From NCBI GenBank assembly GCA_015521685.1, contig WANT01000024.1:901-64900 (forward strand): 64,000 nucleotides of DNA. Reading direction: 5' to 3'. Positions 14,188-47,392 of this stretch are shown piece by piece. Under the pieces are notes generated by a model, which saw only the letters and a list, made by a program, of their open reading frames with translations, was not told where the DNA came from and did no database searches. This DNA comes from Aeropyrum sp. (GTDB taxonomy: Archaea > Thermoproteota > Thermoprotei_A > Sulfolobales > Acidilobaceae). The position numbers and the translations under genes are program-made. Positions within the stretch are counted from its first letter, which is position 1; each line of letters starts with the position of its first letter.

Positions 14188-14213
14188 AGCCAGTTTGGAG
14201 TGGGGTGGTAGCG

Positions 14214-27042: not shown

Positions 27043-28710
27043 TTAGAGAGCATATTCCCCGAGGTCTACCTCTTCTCCTTCCCTAAGCTGCCTCCACTCA
27101 GCGACCATATCAATATCTGCCCCGCCAGTCTCAGTTTCGCACTTATCAATCTTAACAACAGCAGGGATTCTAGTCATACTTCCCATAATGAGGGCCTCAC
27201 CCGTGTTAAGGCTTGGAAGTATAGACGCGAGGTCCTCGCTCAGCTCCTCGCTCGCCGATTGGACGTATCTTATGTCTTGAGGCTCAACTATCTTCAAAAT
27301 GATCTTATTGTTGGTTTGGCTGAGTACGTCTGGATCTAGTCTCTTAGGCCTCTGACTCACAATTACTAATCCTGCACCGAACTTCCTACCCTCTCGAGCA
27401 ACCCGCGAAGCCCAAACCTTGGTAAGCCTGTGCTCGTCTTTCGGGATTAGAATATGCGCCTCCTCTATAACAAACAATACAGGATACCTGTAGATTTCTC
27501 CCGCCTGAATACCCTTGACAGCGTTAATCCTCCCCCTAAGCAACCTCCTCAAATAGTGGCTCACAACCGCATCAGCAGCAATGTCGTCGAGCATACTCAA
27601 ATCCATTATTGTAGCCTTCCCGGGCGGGACTATACTCTCGATGTCAGTTGGCATATCAGGGTTTATGGCAAACCTATAGTACTCGAGAAGATCGTTAAAC
27701 TTGTCGAGGACCCCCAAGAACTGGTCGAGCTTAGCAGTAGGTGCTTTATAGTCCGGAGCTATACCTACTATTTTCTTCATTGCATCTTCTAGAGGATTCT
27801 TGCTTGACGTCTTTTCGCCCGATATCATTTTATCAACAGCAGTCTCCAAAACCTCAACCGCTCTCTCCAAAACGTCTCTTGCTCCCAAAACCCTCCTCCT
27901 ATAAGCCTCCATCATACCCGTCCAAAGCCACCTGATAATTCTCCTCTGGACGCTGGCAGAGCCGGGAAGATCCATCAACTGTATCAGTTCCCCAAAGCTT
28001 AAGGATACAGGGTTAACGGCTGCGGGCCTCCACAATTTAGCCCTCTCCACGCCAAGGCCTAGGTCGCTGTATTCTCCGTGCCTATCGAAGATGACCACCG
28101 TCGCGCCTAGGCTTGAGACCATCCTCCTTGTGAGGACACAGACTGTATTGCTCTTACCTCCTCCTGTTACAGCGAGTATGGCTAGGTGCCTTCCCAGCCT
28201 GTTAACATCTATTTTGTACCTGACTCCTCCACCGAGCACACTACCTATCTCCATCCAGCTCTCTCCGGGCGGCGAGAAAATCCTTCTGAGGACCTCCTTG
28301 CCAGCGAGAAATACATTGTTTGCCGGCTGTGGCGGGATCTTGGGCGAGTCAACCGCGCCCCGCTCCACCAAGCTGTCTACATAACTAACCCACCTCACAC
28401 TACCATGGTGGTATCTCGACCTGTCGAGAATCCACTCCATATCGTCCCTGACAAGCCTCTCCACCGAGTGTGTGTCCTTCACATCCGCGCTCAGCAGAGG
28501 CACTCCTGACCTTATGCTCTCCACTACACCAAGAACGCAGCGGCCGTCGAGATACGTCACTACGTGAGATCCAACCATAACGCTGCCTATGCTGCCTGGG
28601 CTGAATAGGATGGTGCTGTGTGATGAGGTACTCTCACCTATAATCCACCCAACCATATCCCCAGCACAACTGGGTTCATAACCGGAGGACACTCCTGCCC
28701 ACCCCCTCAA
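27043..28710 (-). CDS. herA: Bipolar DNA helicase/translocase HerA (canonical)
   Basis: HAS barrel, AVTGGGKSN, VIEEAH, REGRKFG and SQRP; located in the mre11-rad50 operon. Confidence 0.93.
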   Translation of the reverse strand: MRGWAGVSSGYEPSCAGDMVGWIIGESTSSHSTILFSPGSIGSVMVGSHVVTYLDGRCVLGVVESIRSGVPLLSADVKDTHSVERLVRDDMEWILDRSRYHHGSVRWVSYVDSLVERGAVDSPKIPPQPANNVFLAGKEVLRRIFSPPGESWMEIGSVLGGGVRYKIDVNRLGRHLAILAVTGGGKSNTVCVLTRRMVSSLGATVVIFDRHGEYSDLGLGVERAKLWRPAAVNPVSLSFGELIQLMDLPGSASVQRRIIRWLWTGMMEAYRRRVLGARDVLERAVEVLETAVDKMISGEKTSSKNPLEDAMKKIVGIAPDYKAPTAKLDQFLGVLDKFNDLLEYYRFAINPDMPTDIESIVPPGKATIMDLSMLDDIAADAVVSHYLRRLLRGRINAVKGIQAGEIYRYPVLFVIEEAHILIPKDEHRLTKVWASRVAREGRKFGAGLVIVSQRPKRLDPDVLSQTNNKIILKIVEPQDIRYVQSASEELSEDLASILPSLNTGEALIMGSMTRIPAVVKIDKCETETGGADIDMVAEWRQLREGEEVDLGEYAL

Positions 28711-29890
28711 GACTCAAACCCATAACCAGAAGCGAGGACTCAAGGTCCTGGGAGGAAACTTTCGCTCTTTCATGGGCGATGAGAAGGTGCAGGGGATAGC
28801 CGCTAGGAGATATGTCTATCAAGGGCTTTAGGACCTCAGCTATATACTCGGCAGGGTTGAGGAGTTCTGGGGTGCTTGATGGAACCAGGGCTGAAACTGA
28901 GAGTATTGGACCAGCTGGAGACAGCCTGACATAAGTCCTAACCTCAGCAACCATTTCCGTGTAGAAACGCCTAAGGTCGCCAACGTCAGGGATAAACCTT
29001 CCTGAGGCCTCGTCCCCGCCCAAGCCTAGTATGTTTTCGATGCCGATTTTCACCATCGCGTCTCTTCTAAGAACCGCCAAGGAGGGCTCGGGCGGAGCAG
29101 CAGGATAGAGGTAAGCCACATCAGGGAGGGGGCCTCCGCAGGCCTCGCTAGATCTCGAGGTTTTAGCAACAAATATAGGAGTTATACTCTTTCTCCACGC
29201 TTCCCGCAGTAGGCTCATGTAGAGGTACAGCTTCTCAGCCACCTCAACCGCTATGAGCCATCTTAAATCCTTAGCAGAGTAAGTATTGGACCTGGCTAGT
29301 ATCATACCTAGCTTAGCGCTTGCAGGCCTTCTAACAGCTTTAGACACCAAGTCTTCCACACACTCACCCTTAACACTACACTCTATTCCTAGGATCGAGA
29401 GGTCTACGTCGACCAGCACACGCTTAGCAGTCTCGAGGGCTTGGCTCATCATCAAGTCTCTCCGCGCGAATCCAGGCCTCCACCACTTTAGTGCAGTTGC
29501 AGGACTGCCGTCTAGAAGTATGACACCTGGACCCTCTATCCGCCTAACCAGCTCGAGGGCTGTATATGCTTCTAGTACTTCCCTATATATGGATATCCTG
29601 GCTTCAGGCTCGACTGGAGGCACCACGACCCCAATCGCGTTGTACAGGGCCTCTGATCCCGACTGCGTCCCTGCCCAGGCCCTAGCCAGGTAGAATGTGA
29701 AGTCGCTGAAATCCAGCGACCTGTTACCGCCGTCAACAGCAATAATGGCTTCACCAAGTCTTTTCCCGTCCAGCTTTTTGAATCCAATGAGGCCCTCACA
29801 GCTATCTCTGCCTTCTGCTCGCCTCGATAGAATATCTCTAACTAGGGGTGAGACCTCCCGAGCCTCCTCCGCGATATCCCTAACCATCAA
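28676..29890 (-). CDS. nurA: DNA double-strand break repair nuclease NurA (canonical)
   Basis: IAVDGG, LLDGS, FVAKTS and GYPLHLLIAHERAKV; lies between rad50 and herA. Confidence 0.88.
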   Translation of the reverse strand: MMVRDIAEEAREVSPLVRDILSRRAEGRDSCEGLIGFKKLDGKRLGEAIIAVDGGNRSLDFSDFTFYLARAWAGTQSGSEALYNAIGVVVPPVEPEARISIYREVLEAYTALELVRRIEGPGVILLDGSPATALKWWRPGFARRDLMMSQALETAKRVLVDVDLSILGIECSVKGECVEDLVSKAVRRPASAKLGMILARSNTYSAKDLRWLIAVEVAEKLYLYMSLLREAWRKSITPIFVAKTSRSSEACGGPLPDVAYLYPAAPPEPSLAVLRRDAMVKIGIENILGLGGDEASGRFIPDVGDLRRFYTEMVAEVRTYVRLSPAGPILSVSALVPSSTPELLNPAEYIAEVLKPLIDISPSGYPLHLLIAHERAKVSSQDLESSLLVMGLSLEGVGRSVLRL

Positions 29891-32718
29891 GCTAGCCCAT
29901 CACCCCCACACCTTACAACACTACCTCTAGCCTGATCCCTTGTCACAATACACGTCACGTCTGCATAGTCCCTCACGTCCCCGTGGTGAGTTATGACTAT
30001 GAGCTGCTCCACAATCCCTTCCTCGCTAATGGCCCTTAGGAGCTCAACAAGCGCCTCTCGCCTAGGCTGGTCCAAATTACTAGTTGGCTCGTCGAGAGCT
30101 ATGAAGCCGAGTTTGGAACCTACAACCTTGTTCAAAGCAACTATGAAGGATATGGCCAGAGCTGTCTTCTCTCCGCCGCTTATAGCTGAGGCCTCGACCC
30201 TCCCACCCTCACTATTGTATACATTTAGCTCGATACCCTTACTACCCCTACTAGCTACGACCTCCCTCAGCTCCACGGCGCTTATAGAAAGGTCGAATCT
30301 TGACAGGAGATCATTTATCTCATCCTCGAGCATGGGTATGACGTGCTCGTATGACAGGTCCTTAACCTCCATTAAAATCCTTTTGGCTGCGAGTGCCGGT
30401 AGCAGTAGTCTTAGCAGTTTACTGCCTTCATCATACTCCTTCATATACTTCTCAGCTTGAGCTATAGCATGTGAGTACTTGAACATCAGGTCCTCGTAAC
30501 TCTTCCTTAACTCTCGGATCTTAGCCTCCAGCTCCCTTGCCCTCCTTACCAGCTCGCCCCTCCTCCTAACTCGGGAAGCTAGCTCCTCAATCTCCCTATT
30601 CACACTCTCCAGCCTCCCCTCAAACAATTCTATCTCAGCCTTGACACGCTCAACCTCTCCCACCACCTCCTCGAGCCGATTAGACTCCTCCAACAGCTTC
30701 TTGAGTATGGATTCGGCTCTGGCCAACTCACTCCTAGCCTTACTAAGAGCTTGCTCAAGGCTGCGGTCTCCTAGATTCAAGCCTAGTGACTTACCCAGCT
30801 CCTCTACAATTGAGGCCGCTCTCCTCCTTGATTCTTCAAGTAACTCTCTCTTCTCGGCAAGAGCGTCTCCTATAGAATCCTCTCTAACTCCTAGACCGAT
30901 TAGAACGCTATCAGCACTCTTCTTTAACCCCATAAGTCTGGCTATCTCGCTGGAGATGAGGCTCTTCTCTTTCTCGAGCTCCCTAAGCCTCATGTATAAG
31001 CCTCTAAATCTCTTCTCTAGGGTTTCGAGACGCTTTTGCGCTGATACTAGGTCCTCAATCGATTCTAATCCAATCTCCTCCAACCTATGTTCAAGACTCT
31101 TAGCTTCAATCAGTAAACTCTGGAGCTTTTCCCTTCTCTCCTCAAGACTTCCTAACTCCCGCCTAAGTGCATAGGCCTTTTCCGTAAGCTCGGCTGCCTC
31201 AGCCTCGAGACGCCTAGCCTCCACGAGGTAGTGTTTGACTAGTTCTTCCGCTCTCTCAGGTCTTAATGGGGAGCCGCATACCGGGCATCTACCATGACCA
31301 GCACTACCCTCCAGGACCTTGACAGCGTCCTTCATACTTTCTGCCTGAGATAGAATATAGCCTGCCCTCTCCTGCAGTCTTTCTAGCTCCTCCTTATACT
31401 TTGCTATCCTATCATCCAGGGAGGATAGCTCTTCTTCGAGCCTAGCCCTAAGCTCCTTTACTCCAATCTTGCAAGGCTTGCTACAATACTTCTCTCCTAC
31501 TCTCGCGAGATCCTCCATAAGTCTAGATGCCTGATTAACTTTTAATCTCGCCTCTTCTAGCTCTTTCTGCAGAGAATCATACTCTTTCCATGTAGTCTCA
31601 TATTCTTCTTCTATCTCCCTGAGCCTCAACTCCAGTTCTGGTATCCTTGAAACCTCTTCAAAGTCGGCCTTTACTTTCTCGAGGATTTTCACCTCGTTCT
31701 CTAACTTTGATATTCTTGAGGCCAGGGCTTCCCCCTCCTCTACAATGCTCTTCAACCTGAGCTTTGCCTCCAAAAGTTGCACCTCGTTCCTGATCTTCTC
31801 TATCCTAGCCTTCTCGCGCTCCAGCTGCACTAGCAGCGCCCTAAGACGGGATATGTGGTTGAGGATGCTCTCTCTCTCACGCTCTAGCCTTTCTAGCCTA
31901 TCCTTATCACTCTCAACCCTGGCTATCTCCGAGTTTACAAATCTAAGCTCGCTCTCCAATTTCTCCAGCTCGCTCTTCAAACTCTTCACTTTTCTCGTGA
32001 GAACCTTCTCTTCTTTACGATACTCGTCAGCAGCTAGCCTAGCCTCTAACACCCTATCTCTGGCCTTGATGTAGGCCCTACGAATACCGTCGAGTGTGGC
32101 AGCAGATCCTACGCTTAGTGTAGATGAGACTCCCTCTATCCTTATTTCGACATTGCCCAGCTCTTTAAACGCCTTCTCGTACACTGCCATTCCTAGGGCT
32201 GAATCCAAAAGCTTCCTCAGATCAGCTGGGCTAGCCAGCGTAGAGGCTATCTCGGCAAACCCGTCCTGCGAGACTATAATTGCCTTTTTAATATATGATG
32301 CTGGATCAGGAATCCCCCTTAGGCCGAGAATCCTGTGGATCTCTCCACTGTAACCTTTGGCTGTAGAGGTTATTCTCCTGCCTCCAACCCTTATCAATGC
32401 TGATTTTTTCTTAATGCTCCTTTGCTCCCTTGTTAGCATTAGGCTTAGATCTACATCATCCCCTCCAAGCTGGTTCTCTAGAGTCAGTGATATGCGCCCT
32501 GAGTGGGCTCCACTGCTGATTATGCTCTTTCCTCTCGGGGAATCGAAGGGCGTAAGGGCGTACAATATCGCCTCAAATATGCTGCTCTTTCCAGCACCGT
32601 TCTCACCCACAATTGCAGTGAACCCCTTAGAAAACTCTATCGACGTGCTCTTATGCGATAGAATGTTCTCAAGCCTCAGTCTCCTCAACGTGTAGAGGCC
32701 CTCAGCCATGAGCCTCAC
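29887..32718 (-). CDS. rad50: Rad50 ATPase
   Basis: GENGAGKSS, long coiled coil with Zn hook CPVC, signature ISGGE, LDEPT, ITH. Confidence 0.96.
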   Translation of the reverse strand: MRLMAEGLYTLRRLRLENILSHKSTSIEFSKGFTAIVGENGAGKSSIFEAILYALTPFDSPRGKSIISSGAHSGRISLTLENQLGGDDVDLSLMLTREQRSIKKKSALIRVGGRRITSTAKGYSGEIHRILGLRGIPDPASYIKKAIIVSQDGFAEIASTLASPADLRKLLDSALGMAVYEKAFKELGNVEIRIEGVSSTLSVGSAATLDGIRRAYIKARDRVLEARLAADEYRKEEKVLTRKVKSLKSELEKLESELRFVNSEIARVESDKDRLERLERERESILNHISRLRALLVQLEREKARIEKIRNEVQLLEAKLRLKSIVEEGEALASRISKLENEVKILEKVKADFEEVSRIPELELRLREIEEEYETTWKEYDSLQKELEEARLKVNQASRLMEDLARVGEKYCSKPCKIGVKELRARLEEELSSLDDRIAKYKEELERLQERAGYILSQAESMKDAVKVLEGSAGHGRCPVCGSPLRPERAEELVKHYLVEARRLEAEAAELTEKAYALRRELGSLEERREKLQSLLIEAKSLEHRLEEIGLESIEDLVSAQKRLETLEKRFRGLYMRLRELEKEKSLISSEIARLMGLKKSADSVLIGLGVREDSIGDALAEKRELLEESRRRAASIVEELGKSLGLNLGDRSLEQALSKARSELARAESILKKLLEESNRLEEVVGEVERVKAEIELFEGRLESVNREIEELASRVRRRGELVRRARELEAKIRELRKSYEDLMFKYSHAIAQAEKYMKEYDEGSKLLRLLLPALAAKRILMEVKDLSYEHVIPMLEDEINDLLSRFDLSISAVELREVVASRGSKGIELNVYNSEGGRVEASAISGGEKTALAISFIVALNKVVGSKLGFIALDEPTSNLDQPRREALVELLRAISEEGIVEQLIVITHHGDVRDYADVTCIVTRDQARGSVVRCGGDGLA

Positions 32719-33974
32719 CTGACCCCCAGGATAGACTCCCAGACCTTCTTGTCGACCTTGGCCGCAAGCTTCTCTAGAACCCTTACAACACCCTCCTCAT
32801 CACCAGATATGGCTGAATCCACAAGGTCCTGAAGTATCAGGGCCGAAGCCTGCTCTGGTATCTTATAATGATCCGATACTATCTTCACAAGGCTTAGAGA
32901 ACCCTTGTGTACCAGCCCTCGCTTTAAGTCATCCCTCTTACCCGCAACTTTCCAGTGTATCTTCAATAATGCGCCGGCTTCCGAGGCGGCCCTAACACCT
33001 TCCCTAATGACTAGAGCTTTCGGCACGTCACCACTAGACTTTATTACCAAGTGGATTAGAGGCCTCTTACCAGGATACTTAGAGGCTTCTGCCAAGATCT
33101 TACGCCTAACCTCTGCAACTAGCCAGCGGCGAGCATCACTACCTGTATGTAGCCCCCCACTCTCAGAGCCTCGATTATAATCAACCTCAACCACAGCTTG
33201 AGGCCTGCGCTCTAATCTTATCTCCTCTACACCTGGCGAATCTCCGCTCAGATCAACCCAGAGAGGAGAGCCCGGAGTTTTAATCTCATCTATCCTGAGC
33301 GGGTCGAGTACACCTGGGTATGCATAGGGGACTCTAGAGTCAAGCCTTATCCTTTTACTGTGAATGTGGCCTAGGGCCACGTAGTCCATAGATTCTGGCA
33401 GCTCTAAGGGGGATACCGGTGCGTCGTACGGTAGTTCAACGTCTAGCGCGAAGTGGCCTAAAAGAATCTTTTTGCCCATCCTTCCACGTGCGACATCATC
33501 GAAGTACCTGAATATCTTGAGAAGACTATTCTTCCTTTTATCTGCCTCCTCCCTAAAGAAGGGAGTTACGAAGACTGTCAGGCCGTTAAGGTCTATTACC
33601 AAGTTCCTAAGCATAGCTTCCCCACCTGCACCTCGCCTCAGTACCGGCGCCTTAAACCTGTCCAGCATAGCATCTAGAAGCGTCAACACAGTCTCGTCTA
33701 GCGTATGGGGAGTGTCATGCTCTCCATGAGCAACTATAACATTGATTCCTTTCTCGTCGAGGGCTCTAAACAATCTCGCTGCCCTCTTAAGATCCTTAAG
33801 AGGAGGCCTAGGCTTGTCGAACAAGTCGCCAGCTATTACCACAGCATCAGGCCTGTCCCTCAGAATAATATCCACTACGGTTTCGAATGTCCTGAAGACG
33901 TCTTCACGCCTCTCCTCCATGTTATAGGGTTTGGCGGCAAGATGGACGTCAGCTAAGTGCAATATAGTGGCCAC
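32715..33974 (-). CDS. mre11: Mre11 nuclease
   Basis: HLADVHL, AGDLFD, HGEHD, LGHF, ALGHIH and YPG phosphoesterase motifs. Confidence 0.95.
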   Translation of the reverse strand: MATILHLADVHLAAKPYNMEERREDVFRTFETVVDIILRDRPDAVVIAGDLFDKPRPPLKDLKRAARLFRALDEKGINVIVAHGEHDTPHTLDETVLTLLDAMLDRFKAPVLRRGAGGEAMLRNLVIDLNGLTVFVTPFFREEADKRKNSLLKIFRYFDDVARGRMGKKILLGHFALDVELPYDAPVSPLELPESMDYVALGHIHSKRIRLDSRVPYAYPGVLDPLRIDEIKTPGSPLWVDLSGDSPGVEEIRLERRPQAVVEVDYNRGSESGGLHTGSDARRWLVAEVRRKILAEASKYPGKRPLIHLVIKSSGDVPKALVIREGVRAASEAGALLKIHWKVAGKRDDLKRGLVHKGSLSLVKIVSDHYKIPEQASALILQDLVDSAISGDEEGVVRVLEKLAAKVDKKVWESILGVR

Positions 33975-34196
33975 TTTTACCCCAGCACCCCCCTTAAGCC
34001 CCTAAGACTCCTGTAATACTTAAAGAGCAGAAGTAGGTAGACTTTCCTGATAATGCTACTAATATTTGTACAGAAATCCTAGACTAGATTAACCATATTT
34101 TTCCATCCGACATCTTACAAGAATTGTATAATTCCTGTTATAATCCAAAATGTACGAACATCTATAGCCAGAGAGTTGGAATGAAGAATCATACCG

Positions 34197-34352
34197 TCAC
34201 TTTCCTTTCTTCTTAGGCCTTAGATTCTTACTCTTGCATCTCCTACACTTGGTGGCAGACACCGGGTTGATTGCACCACATCTCCTGCATATCTTCTTCT
34301 CCAGAACCCTCTTTTCGAATATCGCGATGAGCTCTGGGTCTGTTATCGGCAT
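34197..34352 (-). CDS. rpl40e: 50S ribosomal protein L40e (missed by ORF track)
   Basis: [51 protein letters not shown], 51 aa, Zn-finger L40e pattern. Confidence 0.95.
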
Positions 34353-34408
34353 GATCCTACCCCTGAGGCGTTCATGTTCTTGACCAAGGCTTAAATAAAG
34401 TTATGTGG

Positions 34409-35458
34409 CTAGCCAAACCACAAGTCTAGCCTCGACTGGCGGGCTTTCAGTTTTTCTCTATAAGCCCTTACGAGCCTCTCAAGAGCCCTATCCACACGCT
34501 GAGGATTGAAGTCATGCCTAGCTACTAGAATATCTCTTATCTTGGCCTCGTCTGGCCTACTGAACTTTATGCTGTACTCGCTACTCACCGGCGGCTTCAG
34601 GAAGTATTCGTATATCTTCACCAGATAGTCTGGCTCATAGTCTTGCCTCACCGACTTGAGGACCTTGACGGGATCATCAACACCTCGCACCACCCTTAGT
34701 GCGGTCTTAGGCCCATACCCCTTTACACCTCCAGGGTTATAGTCAGTACCAAGAAGTATGGCAAGCACTATCAGCTTTTCCCTAGTCAAGCTGAGCTCCC
34801 TTAGGAGGGCATCAAGCTCTATAACCTCTGGCCTGACCTCCACATACTGATCCTTACCTGGCAGTTTCCGCCTACCCGTTATTGTTATGTTCCTAACGAG
34901 CCTTGGAGCGCCGAAAAGAAGGCTATCATAGTCCTGGCTTCCGGCAGCCCATGCATCACCTACTCTAGCCATATATGCAGCCTGGGCTTCGCCCTCGGCA
35001 GGCGCCTGCACCCATGGAATGCCCATAGCGTCCAAGAGCTCCTTAGACTCCTCCACCATATCGCTAGAGAGCCTAGCTGCCATCATGGCGAACTTCCTCG
35101 CCTCCTCAACATCCCCAACCTCCACCGCCTTCCTATACTTCTCTGCAGCCTCCATCTTTCTCTTCAGCCTCTCTTCAACCTCCCGCTTCTTCATCTCGGG
35201 CGTCTTACCGTCGAAAACATATACGGGCTTAACTCCGTCCTCGACAAGGTTTATGGTCCTATAGAACAGGCCGCTAAGGTGGCTTGTTATCCGTCCCTCC
35301 CTATCCATGAGGGGAGTCCCGTCTGGCTGCCTGATAGCTGTAAGGAACTGGTACAGAGCGTTATATGCATCTATCGCTATAACGTTGCCAGCTAGATGCT
35401 TAACCTCGATAACTCTCTTCGCCTCGGCAGGAATGATTTCCCTTAGATTAACCCCCAA
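34409..35458 (-). CDS. fen: Flap endonuclease 1
   Basis: MGVNL, IDAYNALYQFL, VFDG, EGEAQAA, SQDYD, GTDYN and C-terminal PIP box QSRLDLWF. Confidence 0.97.
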   Translation of the reverse strand: MGVNLREIIPAEAKRVIEVKHLAGNVIAIDAYNALYQFLTAIRQPDGTPLMDREGRITSHLSGLFYRTINLVEDGVKPVYVFDGKTPEMKKREVEERLKRKMEAAEKYRKAVEVGDVEEARKFAMMAARLSSDMVEESKELLDAMGIPWVQAPAEGEAQAAYMARVGDAWAAGSQDYDSLLFGAPRLVRNITITGRRKLPGKDQYVEVRPEVIELDALLRELSLTREKLIVLAILLGTDYNPGGVKGYGPKTALRVVRGVDDPVKVLKSVRQDYEPDYLVKIYEYFLKPPVSSEYSIKFSRPDEAKIRDILVARHDFNPQRVDRALERLVRAYREKLKARQSRLDLWFG

Positions 35459-36860: not shown

Positions 36861-38135
36861 CTACAAGCGTGAATAGTGTACTAGGCCTGGCCTCGATCCC
36901 AGCATCCTAGAGAGTTCATCGAAGAATTCATCCTCCGTCACCACTTCCTGCCTTCCCGCCTCCCACCTCCTCCTAACAGTGATAGTTCTCGTCTCCACTT
37001 CCCTCTTACCTACGACTAGGGTATAGGCGGACCACCTCCTTCCCGCCTCCCTTATCCTCCTACCTAGACCCTCACCCTCGAGTATCCAGACCCTGCTACC
37101 TAGGGATGCCGCTCTGCGGGCTAGTGATGTTGCATAGTCTAGTTCCTCGCCGCCCACTGGTATAATGGTGACTTGGATAGGGGTAAATCCGAAATTCAGG
37201 TATGGCGTGATCCCTTCTTTGGCAATCTTGATTAGCTGGCTTAATGCTAGTCTCGCTATACTGCTGAGAGGGCCTATACAAACCCTACTTTCTCTTCTAA
37301 AGCCAATAATGGATCCATCAGCTCTTGCCTTTATCAGTCCATTCGCGTCTATATCATAGGACGGTTCTCCTTCAAGCATATTGCTTATAAGCTTGAATAC
37401 AGCTTTATATGCTTCCTCGGCATCATTAATGGGCCCTATAACGATGTTGCCAGCACCTGGACCAACATAGATTGACGGTCCTGAGGCTTCGCTACAAGCC
37501 TGATATGCACTCACCAGTGTCTCATGCCAGATGATAGACTCCGGCGTCTTGTACCCACTAATCTCTAGCAATGCGTGAGCCAGATCCATGTATACGGTGT
37601 AGGCCCATGTTGGAGGAAGGCCTCCACCATCGAGAAGCCCTATCCTAGCCATCAACTCTCCAGTACTGCCAGACATCAACTCCTTCAGGCTGGGCCACGG
37701 CTCCTCTCTAGGCTGGTTAGTGAATGTTCTGGATAGTTCTGCAAGGGGATGGCCCTTACATACTAACCTGAATGATTTATACCAGCCGAAGGGTGCTCTG
37801 TGGACCTCGCCTTGATATGATGTCCTCAAAACTGTCTCCAGCCTCGCCAAAGCTTTATGTGCTTTGGAGGGCTTTTCCAGATTGCTTGAGAGGTGGGCGT
37901 AGGGGTACAATACTATTCTTTCCACCTTTAGTCTATCAGCGTGCGAAACGAGGTCCTCAACAGCCATCTTAATAACATCCTCACCGTCACCCATCTCCAC
38001 AGTTATGAATGCTACTAACGCTTCTCCGAAAGAGGCCTCCGAGGGAGGGTCTGGAGGGTTTTTGATGGCAGGCTTGATAGCCCTATAGTGAAATTCATCT
38101 ACATGAAAATATAGAGTTCTCACCTTGACAGGCAC
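36861..38135 (-). CDS. thrS2: Threonyl-tRNA synthetase editing subunit (ThrRS-2: editing + anticodon-binding domains, no catalytic core)
   Basis: YPYAHLSS, RAPFGWYKSF and CKGHPLAELSR editing motifs; C-terminal anticodon-binding domain (VVGKREVE...VRRR); no class II motifs. Confidence 0.88.
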   Translation of the reverse strand: MPVKVRTLYFHVDEFHYRAIKPAIKNPPDPPSEASFGEALVAFITVEMGDGEDVIKMAVEDLVSHADRLKVERIVLYPYAHLSSNLEKPSKAHKALARLETVLRTSYQGEVHRAPFGWYKSFRLVCKGHPLAELSRTFTNQPREEPWPSLKELMSGSTGELMARIGLLDGGGLPPTWAYTVYMDLAHALLEISGYKTPESIIWHETLVSAYQACSEASGPSIYVGPGAGNIVIGPINDAEEAYKAVFKLISNMLEGEPSYDIDANGLIKARADGSIIGFRRESRVCIGPLSSIARLALSQLIKIAKEGITPYLNFGFTPIQVTIIPVGGEELDYATSLARRAASLGSRVWILEGEGLGRRIREAGRRWSAYTLVVGKREVETRTITVRRRWEAGRQEVVTEDEFFDELSRMLGSRPGLVHYSRL

Positions 38136-38307
38136 CCCCCTTTACTTGTTAAATGTTGTGGTGTCAAAATCTTATGGAGTAGGGTGGACTATACTTCCGA
38201 GTGTTGATATTGGTTTTCGCTGGAGGGGGAGAGGGTGGGGACTATTGATTCCAAGATCTCTTTTAAAACTTTAAAAATCCGTGCATATTTAAAGGGGATT
38301 GAAAAAT

Positions 38308-40467
38308 ATGTCTAGCGGTAAAGAGAAGGAGGTTAGAGATATAACTGACCTCCCCGGCGTAGGTCCTACCACAGCTCAGAAGCTCATAGAAGCTGGATAC
38401 ACGACTATAGAAGCCATTGCTGTAGCCACACCCCACGAGATAAGCCAGATAACCGGGATTCCTTTGCTGACAGCTCAGAAAATTGTTGAGGCTGCTCGAG
38501 AGGCTCTTAACATTGATTTCAAGACGGCGTACGACCTCAAGATAGAAAGTATGAGCGTGAAGAAGATAACTACCAGTAGCAGGAATCTGGACGAGCTTCT
38601 GGGCGGGGGCGTGGAGACGAAGACTATAACTGAGTTCTTTGGCGAGTTTGGGAGTGGAAAGTGTGTTACGGGAGATACTCCGGTGCTCCATCTCGTGGGC
38701 TCAGGCCTACGTCTTACTCCTATAGAAGATCTCTACAGGTCGTTCGCGGAAGCTTACGGAGAACAGCCCCACGATGAAGGCTATATCGTGAAGGCTAGAG
38801 GGCTAAAAGTACTGGCTTTCGATAGCTCTGGATTGAGGGTATCGGAGGCAGCTTACCTATACAGGGAGAGGGCTAGGAGCCTTATCGAGATACGCTTGTC
38901 GAGCGGAGCTAGAGTTAAAGCAACTCCCAGACACCCGCTTCTAGTACTATCAGGTTCAGGAGTAGTTTGGAAGAGTGCTGGCCTTATCAGGCCTGGCGAC
39001 TATGTTGCTCTAGCTCTTAGAACCATGCCCCAACTTACAAAGCCTAGTTTCGACCCCAATAAGCTCTATAAGATTGGGGCTTTCCTATCTAGAGGTGAAG
39101 AATGTATTAAGGAGAGCCATGTCAAAGCCTCGGAAGGTGCGGAGGCTGTAGATGGCTCTTCCGTTTCCCTTGTTTACGAGTCTAATCCTGACGGGTGCGT
39201 AAGTATTGAGGACTTTGTAACGCAGCTTCTATCCCTGGATAGAGCTAGTATAGCCGCATTTCTAGCTGGCTTCTTCGAGGGCCGGGATAGCGGAGTTGAG
39301 GGTGAATGGATAGAGATAGCTCTGGAGGGTAGGGTCGCAAGAACTTTTGGATACCTACTAGCTAGGATAGGGGTTAAACCCGTAATAGAGTGGCGTAGCG
39401 GCGGGGCAGCAATCATCCGCGTAAGGCGTTCTGACGTTGATGCCATAAAATCGGGGAAGACTGGCGATGATTTTAGAGTCCCCTCTGCGATTATATCCTA
39501 TATCGCTGAGTCCCTCAAAAACCTTAAGCATTCTCGGAGAGATGTCGAGCGAATACTAGAAGAGTTAAGCGTCTCGGAGGGCTGGGTCAGCACGTCCTCA
39601 CTAAGACGAGCTGCGCTTAGCCTCGCTGGCATTGCAGACGCCCTTAGGCAGCAGGCATCCTCATCCGACAACTACGGCTTGGTGGAGGAGGCAGTCCTGA
39701 TAGACGACTTGATATTCACTATTGGCTTAGCCCTAAGGCTGGACTGGGATATGGTTGTGGAGACGAGGATCGTCGAGTACGATGGCTATGTTTATGACGT
39801 TGTCGTTCCCCACTACCACTCGTTCGTCGCTGGAGACCTGCCTATAGTTATGCACAACACACAGATATGCCACCAGCTAGCGGTCAATGTTCAGCTACCT
39901 GAAGATAAGGGAGGCCTCGCTGGCAGGGCCGTATACATTGATACAGAAGGCACTTTCCGCTGGGAGAGGATAGAGCAGATGGCGAGAGGGGTTGGCTTAG
40001 ATCCTGACGATGTTATGAAGAACATTTACTGGATAAGAGCGATAAACAGCCACCACCAGATTGCCATTGTGGATAAACTCTTCGGCGTGGTCAAGAATGA
40101 GGATATAAAGCTGGTAGTGGTTGATAGCGTGACCAGCCACTTCAGAGCAGAGTACCCCGGGAGAGAGAATCTCGCGATGAGACAACAACTCCTCAACCGC
40201 CACCTCCACCAACTGATGAGGATAGCGGATATCTTCAACATAGCCGTAGTCATTACAAACCAGGTGATGGCGAGGCCTGACGTGTTCTACGGGGATCCCA
40301 CCCAGGCGGTTGGAGGGCACGTGGTGGGTCATGCGCCTGGAGTCAGAGTTTATCTTAAGAAGAGTAGAGGCAACAAGAGGATAGCTAGAGTTGTAGATGC
40401 ACCCCACCTACCTGAAGGCGAGACAGTATTCGTTATAACCGAATGGGGTATACGCGACCCTGAGTAG
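38308..40467 (+). CDS. radA: DNA repair recombinase RadA, intein-containing precursor
   Basis: HhH DLPGVGP, GEFGSGK|intein|[25 protein letters not shown] and GGHVVGHA; the exteins total 320 aa from ATG 38308. Confidence 0.97.
38662..39858 (+). mobile_element. Intein (399 aa) in the RadA Walker A motif, with a degenerate LAGLIDADG-type homing endonuclease region
   Basis: Starts CVTGDT (block A); ATPRHPL (block B TxxH); [15 protein letters not shown] (block F); IVMHN|T (block G, +1 Thr); internal [11 protein letters not shown] and [12 protein letters not shown]. Confidence 0.95.
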
Positions 40468-42899: not shown

Positions 42900-44327
42900 A
42901 TGCCTGGAGTCAGTAGCAAGCTAACCACGGCTACTCTCGTGTTGCTAATCGTGTCATTAGTGGCTCTATCCACAGTATCGCAGGCGCAACTAAGGCATCC
43001 CCTAGATTTGAGAGACCCTGTCGAGGCCCTTCTCGACAGCCCCTTCATATACCCTCTCGCATATGAAGACTACGCGTGCCTAGCAGAGTCACTATATTCA
43101 ACCCTACTTTCCTCGCCATATGCCGAGATATTCTTAGAGGAGCTTCCCTCACTACCCTCCAAGGATAAGCGGGATCTCATTGCAATGATTGACGCATCCA
43201 TGATTCTATCTAAAATACCTGCTACTTACAACCCGGCAGCTGAGGACCTCCTATCCGAGGCTAAAGATTCCATATCAAGGAGTGTGTTGAGCCTTCTGGC
43301 CGCGGGATTCGACCCTGAAAAGAAGTATGCATCCACGGAAATAGTTGTGGGCGGATCGTGCCAAGGCATAACTATTCGAGGGCCCGCCTCCCACGTCGTC
43401 ATAACTCTGGTTAACTCTGTGGTGGCAGGCGATACGGTCGTGCTCGTGCCTGTGAGCTCTAAGGTAAAAATATCTGGTGCGATTCCCTCCAGCGAGGGTG
43501 CTGGACCTTCAGTCAATCCGGCCCTCAATCCCGAGTTCGAGGATAAGATAAGGCAGGAGCTATTTCCGGAGGATCCCTATCCCTACACTCCTCGTGATGT
43601 GGAGGGAGTCAGCGAGGAGGTGATAGAGGACGGTGAGGCTGGTGAGGCTAGTGGCGACGACTCGGCTGGGATCGTAGACCTGAGGGACATTTTAAGCGAG
43701 CTTGCCCGTAGGCTGGGAGACGCAAGCTCCGAAGGTAGTGCAGGAAGTATTCCCGGGGGAGCTGAGATTGGGGGAGGGTCAGAAGCCTCAATAGCCGGAA
43801 GGATAGCTGGGTCCATAGGAATAACCTTCCAAGATATTCAGAAACTTTCTGAAATCCTTAATGTTGATTTCCCTATGGGTTACACAGGTGGCGGGGAGCC
43901 CGGCTCTGTAGTGGTTCCTTCGTCTCCATTCACTCTAGGCAGGGAGGGCCTAGCCTTCACCATTGCTGGGCTAGCCCTCTTCACTCTAGTGTCAGCTACG
44001 GTATTCTATGGGCCAAGTCTAGCTAGGGAGCTTAAGTTCTTGTCTAGAAGGCTCATGAGAAGGCAGTATCCAAGCGAGATTGAGGAGTGTTACTGGAAGG
44101 CTGTTAGAGAGCTCTCCAAGATTGTAGTCAAGGAGGAGTGGGAGACGCCGAGGGAGCATTTGCGGAAGGTTGCTGAGAGGCTTGGATCTCCCTCCGAGGC
44201 TATAGTGGCGTACTCCTCCATTGTTAATCTTTATGAGAGGGTTAGGTATGGTGGAATGGATGCTTCGAAGGAGGATGTTTTGGTGTGCTGGTCTAACCTA
44301 GGGGTAATCAAGAGTGATTCTCGATAA
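42900..44327 (+). CDS. Membrane-anchored DUF4129-like protein (MoxR cluster)
   Basis: Signal-peptide-like N-terminus, acidic Gly/Ser-rich linker, TM helix, C-terminal ETPREH...LYERVRYG pattern. Confidence 0.7.
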   Translation: MPGVSSKLTTATLVLLIVSLVALSTVSQAQLRHPLDLRDPVEALLDSPFIYPLAYEDYACLAESLYSTLLSSPYAEIFLEELPSLPSKDKRDLIAMIDASMILSKIPATYNPAAEDLLSEAKDSISRSVLSLLAAGFDPEKKYASTEIVVGGSCQGITIRGPASHVVITLVNSVVAGDTVVLVPVSSKVKISGAIPSSEGAGPSVNPALNPEFEDKIRQELFPEDPYPYTPRDVEGVSEEVIEDGEAGEASGDDSAGIVDLRDILSELARRLGDASSEGSAGSIPGGAEIGGGSEASIAGRIAGSIGITFQDIQKLSEILNVDFPMGYTGGGEPGSVVVPSSPFTLGREGLAFTIAGLALFTLVSATVFYGPSLARELKFLSRRLMRRQYPSEIEECYWKAVRELSKIVVKEEWETPREHLRKVAERLGSPSEAIVAYSSIVNLYERVRYGGMDASKEDVLVCWSNLGVIKSDSR

Positions 44328-45351
44328 GAGAATTATAGTTGCTATAGTTCTTCTTGTACTTATTCTTGGGAGCATGGAATCGAGGCCAAGGGCACTTATT
44401 CTGAGCATCGCGACTCCTGACGACGCGCCCCTACCTTATAACGATGGCCCTCTTGGGATTTCTATACTCTCTGAGAAGCTAGTTGAGGAGGGATTCGAGG
44501 TCGTCATAATTCCTGAACCTGAGGACCTCGAACGATACCTTTTTTCAAGGGAGGCCTCAGACGAGAGGATTATAGTGACAATCATAGGGTCTGATAGCCT
44601 CGTCAACAAGTCGAGCCTAGCTGAAACCCTAAGGATAGTAGCTGAGGCCTCATCGACCTCTAAAATTTCCCTTGTTTATGCTGACGAAAGACCCCTCCTT
44701 CCACTGGATTCAAAGGAGTGGATGTTAGTTCAGGAGGAACTGTGTGGTATTCACTACTTTAGCTTGGGGTCGATGGAGGCTTCAGAGTCCAACATCGTGT
44801 CTGTGATGGGAGGGGAATACGTGGCTTTGACGGGCTATGTCGCTCCGCTAGTCCTATCGCAGAGTGGAGGCGTCGCTTACGCTGCAGAGCCCCCTGACGA
44901 GACTGATATAGTCTTCATGTACGCTTGGCCCTCGCTGGGAGAGGTTAGAGGACTATGGTTTAGTCTCGGGGGCGTCTGTAGTCTTGGTGATGATGTGCTC
45001 GTCGTGATTGGCGACTCAACGATGTTCCTCAACTATATCGTTGAAGTCGGTGATGAGAGCCTGGACGCCGCTGTCCAGCCTTTTATTCTTGCATCGGCAG
45101 GCGAACGAGGTAAAGTAGTCTTTATTCAAGACCTTTATATCTCGGGTGAGCAGAGGAGGAATATAGCGGTTATGCTAGCACCATCTATCATAGTGTTGGC
45201 AGTAGCTGAGCTGTACAGGAGTTTGGAGCCCTCTATAGCCAACTTTCTAGCGTCAACGCCACTAGCCCCAGCATTTATCGCCAGCGTGTCTGTATTCCTC
45301 TGGGCCACCCTTAACTTATTCACTCGCAAAAGGATAACTGGGAGGGGGTAG
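44314..45351 (+). CDS. DUF4350-like exported protein (MoxR cluster)
   Basis: N-terminal hydrophobic anchor, PYNDGPLGISIL, VIGDSTMFLN and a C-terminal TM helix. Confidence 0.6.
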   Translation: MILDKRIIVAIVLLVLILGSMESRPRALILSIATPDDAPLPYNDGPLGISILSEKLVEEGFEVVIIPEPEDLERYLFSREASDERIIVTIIGSDSLVNKSSLAETLRIVAEASSTSKISLVYADERPLLPLDSKEWMLVQEELCGIHYFSLGSMEASESNIVSVMGGEYVALTGYVAPLVLSQSGGVAYAAEPPDETDIVFMYAWPSLGEVRGLWFSLGGVCSLGDDVLVVIGDSTMFLNYIVEVGDESLDAAVQPFILASAGERGKVVFIQDLYISGEQRRNIAVMLAPSIIVLAVAELYRSLEPSIANFLASTPLAPAFIASVSVFLWATLNLFTRKRITGRG

Positions 45352-45357
45352 GCTAGA

Positions 45358-46305
45358 TTGGAGAGGCCCTCATCTAGCGAAATAGCCAGGGCTTCTGAAA
45401 TCTTGGATAGGGTTAGGAGCGCGCTCAGCAACGCTATTGTCGGCAAGGAGTGGGAGCTTGAGATTGCGCTCGCCACTATGGTTGCTGGAGGCCATATTCT
45501 TGTTGAGGGTGTGCCAGGAGTGGCTAAAACAACGCTTGCCAAGGCACTCGCGGGAGTTTTCGGGTTGACCTTCAGCAGGATTCAATTTACTCCAGATACC
45601 TTACCGAGCGACATTATAGGGACCCACGTCTTCGTTGGTAACGGGTTCATCTTCAAGAGAGGCCCAATATTCTCAAATGTTGTCTTAGCCGACGAGATCA
45701 ATAGAGGTAATCCAAGGACCCAGAGTGCGTTCCTAGAGGCGATGCAGGAGAGGCAGGTGACAGTTTGGGGCGAGACTTTCGAGCTACCTAAGCCCTTTAT
45801 AGTTCTTGCTACTATGAACCCTCTAGAGCTTGAGGGTGTTTATCCCCTTCCAGAGGCACAGCTGGACAGGTTCATGAGTATAATCCAACTAGGCTATCCA
45901 GAGCGTGAAGAAGAAATCATTATTGTTGAGAGAGGGGACGAGCTGGAGGATCTCGAAGTTCAGACTGTTGCAACATCATCCGACCTAGAGTACCTACAGG
46001 ACCTCTCTAAACGTGTCCATGTGGAGAGGCCAGTACTTGGCTATATTGTGGATATAGTCAGGCGGACTAGGAGTGTTGAGGGCGTTGAGTTAGGAGCCAG
46101 TCCAAGAGCTGGAATTCACCTACTGAAATTATCAAGGAGCATAGCAGTATTGAGGGGAAGGGATTATGTTATCCCTGATGATGTTAAGGAGGCCTCTAGA
46201 GTTACCTTGCCACACAGGATAAGAGTTAGCCCACTATACAAAGGGAAGGGGTTGACTGGTAGGGATGTGGTAGAGCATGTCCTCCAGACTATTAAGGCTC
46301 CCTAA
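45358..46305 (+). CDS. moxR: MoxR-family AAA+ ATPase
   Basis: [42 protein letters not shown] and GASPR. Confidence 0.95.
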
Positions 46306-47392
46306 AATTTTGAAGCCCATCAAGCCCGGCAAGCCTGAAAACCTTAATATATCTCAGTGGCTGGCGCTAGCATCGACAACCTTTATTGCAGGTTACTACG
46401 TTCACGGCGACCCAATCTTAATATCGGCGGCTATAGTTTCAGGTGCAGTAGCAATCGGATACAGCGTCCCCCACTTCGCTGCAGAGTATTTGGCGGGTGT
46501 ACTACAGCCATCTATACAAATTCCCTCTAGAGCGAGAGAAGGATTGACCGTAACAGCAGAGCTTGTAGTTAGGAATAGGAGTATTATCCCCGTCATAGCC
46601 GAGATAAGCCTTGAATCACAATCCATGGATGTAGTGTGGAAGAGCCACGTCTACCTATCCCCGCTATCAGAGAAGACTATTAGGATAGATTTGGAGGCGA
46701 AATTTGGAAGATATTGCCTAGAGGCTACTGTATCCAGAATATCTGACCCGCTAGGCATGTGGAGCCTCGATACCGCTAGGCTCGCATCGTCCAGATCCTG
46801 TCTTGTTGTCGCCCCTAAGAGTGACTATTCAAAGAGGCCTATGGCTCTGGGTATAGCTGAAGCCCTTGCAGGAGGATCTAGTCGTCACAGGTCCTCGACT
46901 AGCCTGGAGTATAGATCTTTCAGAGAGTATGAGCAGGGAGACGAGCCTAGACTCATAGAATGGAAGCTAAGTAGTAGGAGGGGAGATCTAGTAGTTAAGG
47001 AGTTGGAGCACCGGACATATGGAGGAGAGGTGCCCCTGTTAATTCTAGCTGCCAGCAGATCTAGCGCTACAGAACCTATTTTCGAATCTCGCTATGCTGA
47101 CGCTGCTAGAATTGCCGTTGGAATTATGGAGGAGGTTATCAGGAGCGGGTCACACATCAAGTTCGTCATGAAGAGTGAAGAAGGATTCATAGCTATAGAT
47201 GTCAGAGGGGAGCAGGACATACTTACGGCTGGATATCTAATGGCTGAGGCTAGCCTCCCCCACGATATAAGATGGGATGAGTTATTATCCCTTGCAAAGG
47301 GGCTTTCAAGAGCCTCAGCTCCATCCGTAATTCTGGCAACAGAGGCTGTTGAGGAGGTCGATATACCAAACCTCCACGTTATAAGGGTGTAG
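46277..47392 (+). CDS. DUF58 protein (VWA-like MoxR partner)
   Basis: [24 protein letters not shown]...LVVKE signature with N-terminal TM helices. Confidence 0.88.

Follow-up and report, generated by a model that had tools for sequence, protein, structure and literature searches.

A class-1 intein with a putative endonuclease relic in the P-loop of RadA from an Aeropyrum-clade archaeon

The radA precursor and its intein

The locus was analysed within a window of 64 kb, by which we mean the whole stretch of DNA under study. An open reading frame on the plus strand (38299..40467) encodes 722 amino acids from a TTG start, whereas the database gene calls take the ATG at 38308 as the start, for a protein of 719 amino acids. 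The host part of this protein carries the Pfam domains HHH_5 (5e-15) and Rad51 (2.7e-82). It contains an in-frame insertion of 1197 nt (399 aa) with zero stop codons. The first residue of the insertion, Cys1 (codon 38662-38664), abuts GEFGSGK, and its last residues, VMHN, abut TQICHQ. An earlier note on this DNA had placed the insertion between GSGK and TQ and listed its splicing motifs as intact; position, length and motifs were found to be exact. The features are collected in Table 1. The radA gene lies near mre11-rad50-nurA-herA and fen1. Antisense ORFs within radA (38263-38691, 39174-39446 and 39997-40407, minus strand) were unsupported and were treated as spurious. No other inteins were found in the 64-kb window, and an Rfam scan of the window gave no matches, hence no rRNA or tRNA. 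The organism was placed from its RadA, from synteny and from the neighbouring genes.

Table 1. Features of the radA precursor gene (positions refer to the window)
Feature	Position	Strand	Evidence
radA precursor gene (N-extein, intein, C-extein)	38308..40467	+	Pfam Rad51 2.7e-82, HHH_5, Intein_splicing; P0002 100% identical
N-extein: HhH DNA-binding domain and start of ATPase core, up to first part of Walker A (GEFGSGK)	38308..38661	+	
Class-1 intein of 399 aa (Cys1 ... His-Asn / Thr+1)	38662..39858	+	
N-terminal half of the Hint (splicing) domain, residues 1-120 of the intein, with C1 as block A	38662..39021	+	Aligned to P. horikoshii (Pho) RadA intein residues 15-117; model beta-rich, pLDDT above 90
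Block B, T88-P-R-H91 (in N-terminal Hint half)	38923-38934	+	
Putative relic of a LAGLIDADG homing endonuclease, residues about 121-359 of the intein	39022..39738	+	Alignment, Pfam, model, fold search
Putative LAGLIDADG motif 1 relic, aa 135-147; Arg144 for catalytic Glu	39064..39102	+	
Putative LAGLIDADG motif 2 relic, aa 200-211; Arg208 for catalytic Asp	39259..39294	+	
C-terminal splicing half, intein aa 360-399: block F and block G (VMHN)	39739..39858	+	Aligned to Pho intein 134-172
C-extein: Thr+1 completes Walker A (GSGK-T), then remaining Rad51/RecA ATPase core	39859..40467	+	

The class-1 residues are complete, comprising C1, T88xxH91, block F (intein aa 376-391), H398-N399 and Thr+1. 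When 19 intein homologues were compared, C1, T6, H91, V377, Y378, D379, P383, H398 and N399 were invariant. The insertion matched Pfam Intein_splicing (PF14890) with an E-value of 3.6e-18 (66 bits vs a cut-off of 35.8 bits), and phmmer against the PDB recovered the Pyrococcus horikoshii RadA intein with both splicing halves matched (E 1.3e-23). Thus, the intein assignment is far above chance. The AF2 model of the intein had a pLDDT of 87.5, and its Foldseek matches were inteins only. Judged by its sequence, the insertion is a class-1 intein with a Hint fold at the P-loop allele of RadA.

Removal of the intein in silico gave a RadA colinear over its whole length with that of S. solfataricus (E 9e-149; residues 5-320). 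The spliced DNA aligned over the junction without gaps to the intein-less radA genes of L001 and L002, and GEFGSGK+TQ after excision equals the Walker A motif of the intein-less alleles. The spliced protein is 90-91% identical to the intein-less RadA proteins of Aeropyrum pernix and A. camini. The A. pernix protein comprises 319 aa (90% identity) and carries no intein, as the earlier note had said. The host protein is predicted to be a complete crenarchaeal RadA once the intein is removed. The Pfam and PDB matches together with the restored colinear RadA bear out the proposal that an intein sits in the Walker A motif (P-loop) of a crenarchaeal RadA.

In the 719-aa precursor, Walker A would be cut between Lys and Thr, and productive ATP binding and hydrolysis should fail. 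Splicing by the Hint domain would take four steps, an N-S acyl shift at Cys1 followed by trans-esterification to Thr+1, cyclisation of Asn399 and an O-N shift. From the intact catalytic residues, the predicted products are a RadA of 320 aa and an excised intein of 399 aa.

The endonuclease domain of the intein

The overall fold of the model resembled that of HEN inteins (Foldseek), and the middle domain could be aligned with intact 500-aa RadA inteins despite two large deletions. Its first half is short by approximately 40 aa, and the C-terminal HTH segment of the 500-aa relatives is gone. In the alignment, Arg144 and Arg208 occupy the positions of the Glu and Asp residues found in P0011, P0069 and P0008. 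The sister intein, P0003, also has Arg at the catalytic position of motif 1. No match to Pfam LAGLIDADG_3 (PF14528) was obtained in the intein at E <= 0.1, whereas the 500-aa relatives do have this match. In the AF2 model, residues 144-181 were of low confidence and without beta-strands (pLDDT below 50 for residues 157-168), and the second half of the endonuclease domain was complete.

An active homing endonuclease was rejected because the Pfam LAGLIDADG match is absent, Arg stands in place of each catalytic acid and large deletions are present. The alignments identify the middle domain as a decayed, inactive LAGLIDADG endonuclease, and the element should no longer be able to home. Such a relic, with both acids changed to Arg, half of the DNA-binding saddle and the HTH segment deleted and the sequence drifting, would not support further homing. 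Both acidic residues were kept in none of 21 intermediate-size RadA inteins; endonuclease decay is therefore a continuum. Population SNPs in the endonuclease relic comprised three synonymous and four non-synonymous changes, and Gly207 of the motif 2 relic was polymorphic in vent populations (G207A). The extein had three synonymous and no non-synonymous SNPs.

Distribution, descent and retention of the intein

Of 38 related genomes at species level, 7 carried a radA intein at the same site. Approximately 110 distinct RadA inteins were gathered from metagenomes and genomes, including that of Fervidicoccus fontis Kam940. An exhaustive search with the intein and a search with the full precursor gave hundreds of matches, the top matches of the exhaustive search being RadAs with an intein at about residues 115-150. 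A word-indexed search with the intein alone returned one weak match and missed the Pho-type inteins, which reflects a limit of the prefilter and not rarity. The junction, GxxGxGK before [TS] (between Lys and Thr/Ser of Walker A), was identical in each of the 109 RadAs that a pattern search identified as carrying an intein. We take the insertion site to be 'c1' of Topilina et al. 2015. Two groups of RadA inteins, 'CV' and 'CF', were distinguished, with the window intein in CV and the Pho intein in CF; each group occurs in both Pfu-like and Sso-like RadAs. A survey from 2015 recorded RadA inteins in 'Crenarcheota, Euryarchaeota' (PMC4760082). Together with the counts given above, this survey contradicts, for radA, the view that inteins are rare in crenarchaea. 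The window intein is an ordinary member of a known and widespread RadA intein family.

Trees were calculated by neighbour joining (our own numpy code) from short alignments. The P0003 intein was the sister of the window intein with 99% bootstrap, and its host RadA fell inside the same Aeropyrum extein clade (97% support). Branching within this clade was weakly supported (44-48% bootstrap). Alleles with no intein, with a CV intein and with a CF intein coexist within one 97%-supported extein clade. Identity to the P0003 intein was 56% in the N-terminal splicing domain, 68% in the C-terminal splicing domain and 25% in the middle domain; nine syntenic neighbour genes were 27-64% identical and the exteins 81-89%. 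By these identities, the divergence of the intein from P0003 is in line with that of the neighbour genes. Over the splicing domains, the window intein was 57% identical to P0003, approximately 51% to the next Thermoproteota-type intein and 36-39% to Pho, and the closest inteins all lie in Thermoproteota-type exteins. Codon usage of the intein was indistinguishable from that of the host genes and its GC content was native too; an island of foreign composition was therefore rejected.

We favour the reading, with a probability of roughly 0.8, that this is a long-resident, immobile intein still obliged to splice, in an uncultured Aeropyrum-clade (GTDB Acidilobaceae) archaeon of deep-sea vent metagenomes. 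The intein was probably resident before the window organism split from that of P0003, its nearest intein-bearing relative. It would persist because imprecise loss would ruin an essential recombinase. Relatives without an intein, or with the CF type, would be products of the familiar cycle in which inteins are lost and invade again.

Transfer among close Aeropyrum-clade archaea, either through homing while the endonuclease was still active or through homologous recombination via the highly conserved radA flanks, is a possible if rather unlikely alternative. It would account for the mixed intein states within a single extein clade. Other co-inherited RadA intein pairs at approximately 87% extein identity were 78-88% identical in their splicing domains, compared with 57% for the window intein and P0003. 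The lower value fits faster drift and also a separate acquisition from related donors. Loose ends at radA in vent contigs belonged to other species co-occurring in these vent samples, whose radA has no intein, and P0008 and P0268, with near-identical exteins with and without a CF484 intein, show that such exchange takes place in the group. In contrast, the Arg at motif 1 in common with P0003 and the matching divergence of intein and neighbour genes fit simple co-descent. With the endonuclease no longer active, a transfer would have to be ancient or to have occurred without homing. Vertical descent with losses and transfer between close relatives cannot be separated with the branching support obtained. 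No intein-skipping joints were found in the same population among the assembler contigs searched, which hide rare intein-less alleles.

Long residence of the intein could also reflect domestication as a conditional switch, in which splicing would respond to temperature, ssDNA or redox state and RadA would be freed upon DNA damage. By analogy there is precedent at the identical site, including a role for an endonuclease-remnant loop (PMC4513877, PMC5238726, PMC5790916). The intein has been kept although it is immobile, and radA lies close to the mre11 and fen1 loci. Yet the comparative data contain no signal for a switch that is specific to the window intein, and the closest cultured relatives manage without an intein. 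The relic shares 25% identity with that of its sister and carries non-synonymous polymorphisms, and the cost of imprecise deletion alone explains the retention. Cys+4 of the C-extein occurs in alleles without an intein as well and is therefore not an intein-specific redox partner. We consider such a switch doubtful. A narrower version, in which the dead but predicted-folded relic, with Arg at its two former metal-binding positions, is kept as a sensor that contacts DNA or the extein and gates RadA splicing, appears quite improbable; if true, what the 'remnant loop as hinge' model says of the Pyrococcus RadA intein would hold for an entire domain.

The earlier note had proposed a horizontal invasion from a euryarchaeal hyperthermophile, which we considered as a recent arrival of a Thermococcales-type RadA intein. 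The site is indeed occupied in Thermococcales RadA, as stated there; the phmmer alignment and the literature (PMC5790916) put the P. horikoshii and T. sibiricus (Tsi) inteins at it, and the presence of inteins among close RadA relatives is patchy. Since both intein groups occur in Pfu-like and Sso-like RadAs, cross-phylum transfers have happened at some depth. Nevertheless, the Pho intein belongs to the other group and is more distant than the Thermoproteota-type inteins, among which all closest relatives were found. A dead endonuclease with one inactivating change common to the sister intein, native codon usage and GC content, and a sister divergence equal to that of the neighbour genes also speak against a recent invasion, which we regard as very improbable. 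Two findings had been named as evidence against the proposal. The first, that RadA inteins are common and vertically inherited in this lineage, largely describes what we observed; the second, a chimeric contig, does not.

Six contigs, assembled independently from several samples, encode the identical precursor protein next to the same neighbours. Their depth reaches 104x and coverage is even over both intein junctions, and a chimera was thus ruled out. A pseudogene was rejected since the invariant splicing residues are all present and extein polymorphism is synonymous only. That the radA allele is a dead gene encoding a non-splicing precursor, or an assembly artefact, is hardly credible given these data and the intact 2.16-kb ORF; nothing specific speaks for it, the analysis covering one 64-kb window with a second radA possible elsewhere.

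The long-resident intein favoured here is of little weight alone, being one more occupied P-loop site in RadA. It does correct the impression that RadA inteins are rare in crenarchaea or must originate from Thermococcales. In the narrow Aeropyrum-like clade, empty alleles occur beside a mini-intein of the CF type, and endonuclease decay is seen at two stages; neighbouring lineages hold a 484-aa intein with intact endonuclease motifs that is present or absent in near-identical RadAs. This series offers a natural view of how the intein homing cycle runs in an essential hyperthermophile recombinase, and could be a source of thermostable inteins to set beside the well-studied one in Pyrococcus RadA.

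Comparison with known systems

The best whole-model matches were the archaeal HEN inteins TliVMA (7QSS), PI-PfuI (1DQ3), PhoVMA (7QST) and PI-TkoII (2CW7), with E-values of 7e-17 to 3e-15 and TM-scores of 0.53-0.60. As in the window intein, a LAGLIDADG domain is nested in their Hint domain. However, identity is 13-17%, they reside in other host proteins and they are active endonucleases, whereas the window intein lacks the acids and half of the saddle.

Closer relatives are the CV inteins of approximately 500 aa at the same site, with splicing-domain identities of approximately 51% for P0011 (in a Thermoproteota-type RadA) and approximately 40% for P0069 (Nitrososphaerales). Middle domains of this type align along their length with that of the window intein. 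They keep LFVAEG and FLAGYLEGDG or FLAGYIDGDG, the beta-sheet of the first half, the C-terminal HTH segment and the PF14528 match, in contrast to the window intein, in which the canonical motifs and these elements are missing. The 500-aa CV inteins are probably still mobile.

The sister intein P0003 (L030, L043) is a 356-aa RadA intein at the same site in the Acidilobaceae archaeon MAG S141_metabat2_scaf2bin.228. Its gene order is the same as in the window (radA-217aa-HIT-DHH-DUF4129-DUF4350-MoxR-DUF58). The two differ in that motif 2 is wholly eroded and the endonuclease domain is 43 aa shorter in P0003.

The RadA inteins of P. horikoshii (PDB 2LQM/4E2T) and T. sibiricus interrupt the same point of the P-loop, GSGK/TQ, and have class-1 chemistry as well, based on Cys1, TxxH, His-Asn and Thr+1. 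Their splicing has been published to be conditional on temperature or ssDNA (PMC4513877, PMC5238726, PMC5790916), in agreement with what the earlier note had said of the Pho intein. Among RadA inteins, conditional splicing is known from these two only. The Hint halves of Pho are homologous to those of the window intein, with a Foldseek TM-score of 0.83-0.87 relative to the target. In size the two differ strongly: Pho is a mini-intein of 172 aa with a remnant loop of 11 residues, and the window intein is predicted to retain a folded endonuclease relic of approximately 240 aa.

The intein in the Walker A motif of RadA

Public gene calls of radA begin at ATG 38308 and yield a 719-aa precursor (P0002, 100% identical). 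Pfam assigned to it an HhH domain and a Rad51 ATPase core in two stretches, with an Intein_splicing domain in between. A stretch of 399 residues separates Lys from Thr in the Walker A motif GEFGSGK-T. Cys1, at 38662, stands immediately 3' of GEFGSGK, and the C-terminal VMHN ends at 39858, immediately before TQICHQ. The class-1 splicing set is complete, with T88-P-R-H91 in block B, a 16-residue block F, His398-Asn399 and Thr+1; across 19 aligned RadA inteins these positions do not vary. Searched alone against the PDB, the intein matched the Pyrococcus horikoshii RadA intein (E 1.3e-23) via its N-terminal (15-116) and C-terminal (360-399) halves. In-silico excision gave a 320-aa RadA, colinear over residues 5-320 with S. 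solfataricus RadA (E 9e-149). The RadA proteins of Aeropyrum pernix and A. camini (319 aa) match it at 90-91% identity. With the intein removed, the DNA aligned with intein-less alleles over the junction free of gaps. Thus an intein in the P-loop of a crenarchaeal RadA, as placed by the earlier note, was confirmed in junctions, splicing residues and excision product. A splicing-domain profile search of the 64-kb window revealed no second intein.

From established intein chemistry, the precursor would be inactive as an ATPase. Splicing would start with an N-S shift at Cys1, followed by trans-esterification to Thr+1, cyclisation of Asn399 and an O-N shift releasing the 320-aa RadA. Splicing of the P. 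horikoshii intein depends on temperature, ssDNA or redox (PMC4513877, PMC5238726, PMC5790916). Intein-less alleles, too, have Cys+4 of the C-extein, which is therefore no evidence for an intein-specific redox trap.

Features of the window around radA
Feature	Position	Strand	Remarks
PmbA/TldD-family metallopeptidase genes, two adjacent	12742-15566	+	481 and 487 aa
family-B DNA polymerase	18823-21774	-	983 aa
herA	27043-28710	-	one operon with mre11, rad50, nurA
nurA	28676-29890	-	one operon with mre11, rad50, herA
rad50	29887-32718	-	one operon with mre11, nurA, herA
mre11	32715-33974	-	one operon with rad50, nurA, herA
fen1/XPG	34409-35458	-	after the mre11-rad50-nurA-herA operon
ThrRS-like gene	36861-38135	-	adjoins radA, divergent
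radA ORF	38299..40467	+	TTG start, 722 aa
intein	38662-39858	+	1197 nt, 399 aa, in frame, no stop
DUF4129, DUF4350-like, MoxR AAA+ ATPase, DUF58 cluster	42900-47392	+	downstream of radA

Host lineage, gene neighbourhood and vent populations

After excision of the intein, RadA matched the Sulfolobus protein at 498 bits and the Pyrococcus protein at only 383 bits. The nearest relatives of this spliced RadA are A. pernix and A. camini, followed by MAGs labelled 'Aeropyrum sp.', 'Acidilobaceae' and 'Desulfurococcales', and in the RadA tree it falls inside a 97%-supported clade with Aeropyrum. Because the neighbouring genes share no more than 27-64% identity with their counterparts in the nearest MAGs, the host represents a distinct genus-level lineage. 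An Rfam scan of the window detected neither rRNA nor tRNA.

A DNA-repair neighbourhood lies a few kb upstream of radA (27043-35458, minus strand). Its mre11, rad50, nurA, herA and fen1/XPG genes contain no inteins, nor does the family-B DNA polymerase gene. The divergent ThrRS-like protein consists of the archaeal editing domain and the anticodon-binding domain only, lacking the catalytic core, and several related MAGs likewise have its gene upstream of radA. Editing-domain-only ThrRS is typical of some crenarchaea, in line with the placement of the host; the arrangement presumably corresponds to the split ThrRS of Aeropyrum and Sulfolobus. The order of the DUF4129-DUF58 cluster is kept in the Acidilobaceae MAG S141_metabat2_scaf2bin.228 (locus L043, 14465-19033), with proteins only 27-59% identical. 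In the ORF finder's listing, the two PmbA/TldD genes share about 85 nt.

The identical 719-aa protein was found on six contigs (ENA, Logan and NCBI assemblies) from several hydrothermal-vent samples. Their neighbours are constant, with the ThrRS editing protein upstream and a 217-aa protein, HIT and DHH downstream. Both intein junctions were evenly covered by contigs from four sequencing runs at a depth of up to 104x. A chimeric contig, considered in the earlier note, is thereby excluded. In the vent samples the intein-bearing allele predominates at high depth, and no joints of an empty allele of the same species were seen in their assembler contigs; the closest intein-less protein is 91% identical. 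Contigs of runs X1-X4 with GSGK (or GTGK) fused directly to TQICHQ, from the same vent samples, match the window over about 38 nt only (39859-39896, 38614-38651). These are intein-less radA genes of other, related species living together with the intein-bearing population.

The endonuclease domain

Residues about 121-359 of the intein align with the LAGLIDADG domain of intact relatives of about 500 aa. In motif 1 (canonical YFLGLFVAEG) the Glu is replaced by Arg144, and in motif 2 (canonical FLAGYLEGDG) the Asp by Arg208, each within a ten-residue counterpart. The first half lacks about 40 residues, and towards the C-terminus an HTH-like segment (about 45 residues) has been lost. Pfam detected no LAGLIDADG domain in the window's intein, in contrast to the 500-aa relatives. 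The AlphaFold model (pLDDT 87.5, pTM 0.84) places the motif helices at 132-143 and 194-207. It shows a complete second half of the domain and an unstructured, low-confidence first half (pLDDT <50 for residues 157-168). Foldseek ranked archaeal inteins containing homing endonucleases on top (TliVMA, PI-PfuI, PhoVMA and PI-TkoII; E 7e-17 to 3e-15). Judged from its sequence, the middle domain is a dead homing endonuclease.

The intein of MAG S141 bin 228 (P0003) carries Arg at the same position of motif 1 and has a fully eroded motif 2. The shared Arg suggests that inactivation began before the two inteins diverged. Between samples, seven differences were found in the window's intein, all within the relic (39147-39455). 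Three are synonymous and four non-synonymous (G207A inside motif 2, S246I, K263R and G265E). The extein showed three differences, all synonymous and all in the C-extein. Few as they are, these differences suggest that constraint on the relic is relaxed. We infer a functional radA allele from the population data, with an intact ORF, purifying selection on the extein, the intein-bearing form in the majority and no empty same-species allele seen. That the retained relic has a regulatory role is the sole less ordinary reading to survive, and a very improbable one.

Relatives and origin of the intein

RadA P-loop inteins form two broad sequence groups, 'CF...G-x-x-LHN' and 'CV...P-x-x-x-HN'. The CF group holds the P. 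horikoshii intein, minis of 160-200 aa and 484-aa forms of Acidilobaceae and Thermodiscus MAGs; the window's intein belongs to the CV group. Over the splicing domains only, it is 57% identical to the intein of P0003, about 51% to those of the RadA proteins P0007, P0011 and P0013, 46-47% to the CV minis P0005, P0006 and P0009, and 36-39% to the P. horikoshii intein. The P0003 intein is its sister (99% bootstrap), and the P0003 extein (loci L030 and L043) falls in the same Aeropyrum clade.

Downstream of radA, nine genes keep the order of their counterparts on the P0003 contig, at 27-64% identity. The splicing halves of the two inteins share 56% and 68% identity and the relic 25%; compared with the range of the neighbours, the intein thus seems to have diverged about as much as the genomes. 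The exteins (81-89%) are far more conserved than either. Strict vertical descent with losses and an old exchange among close relatives are inseparable here, because the RadA tree leaves the branching order of empty, CV and CF lineages in the Aeropyrum clade without resolution, and because other RadA intein pairs at about 87% extein identity share 78-88% in their splicing domains, against 57% for this pair. The earlier note had named common, vertically inherited RadA inteins as an outcome that would count against an invasion, and this is largely what was observed.

A recent foreign origin is disfavoured. The intein has a GC content of 51.1%, against 50.2% for the extein and 49.0% for the window, and its GC3 (0.50) lies inside the range of the window's genes. 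Its codon usage is nearer to the window average than that of 75% of equal-length segments of the window's own genes. These values argue against recent arrival together with the genome-like divergence and the dead endonuclease, which makes recent homing impossible. Invasion from a euryarchaeal donor, proposed earlier, was not supported given the native composition, the P0003 sister and the low identity to the P. horikoshii intein, and no link to such a donor was found in these comparisons. CV and CF inteins each occur in both Sulfolobus-like and Pyrococcus-like RadAs (Pfu-like exteins: P0101 with CV450, P0067 with CF483); therefore old cross-phylum transfers exist.

The 484-aa CF inteins occupy the same radA site with intact LAGLIDADG motifs (LGLYVAEG, FLAGYIDGDGY; loci L031, L032, L033 and L034; proteins P0008, P0012, P0015, P0017 and P0019). 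The exteins of P0008 and its intein-less counterpart P0268 are almost identical, which suggests that the CF intein is still homing. In their splicing domains these CF inteins share 57-63% identity with the P. horikoshii intein, and their lineage is a better candidate for Thermococcales-Desulfurococcales exchange than the lineage of the window's intein.

The genome scan used peptide patterns not spanning the insertion site and is unbiased for intein presence. Among 38 species-level radA loci, 31 were uninterrupted and seven carried an intein at GSGK|TQ. The same junction was interrupted by an intein in 109 RadAs from protein searches, and 111 distinct inteins remained after genome loci were added and duplicates removed. 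Carriers include Fervidicoccus fontis Kam940, Fervidicoccaceae and many Nitrososphaerota. Both catalytic acidic residues are kept in 34 of the 46 full inteins (>470 aa), and in none of the 21 intermediate (201-470 aa) or 44 mini inteins (200 aa or less). RadA inteins were already recorded in 'Crenarcheota, Euryarchaeota' (PMC4760082, Table 2), and the P-loop site was described for Thermococcales and Archaeoglobus (PMC4513877, Table 1; PMC5790916). With these counts and records, the view that inteins are rare in crenarchaea does not hold for RadA. The window's intein is a RadA P-loop intein in mid-decay in an Aeropyrum-like vent archaeon, an element of a known kind and not rare in the phylum.
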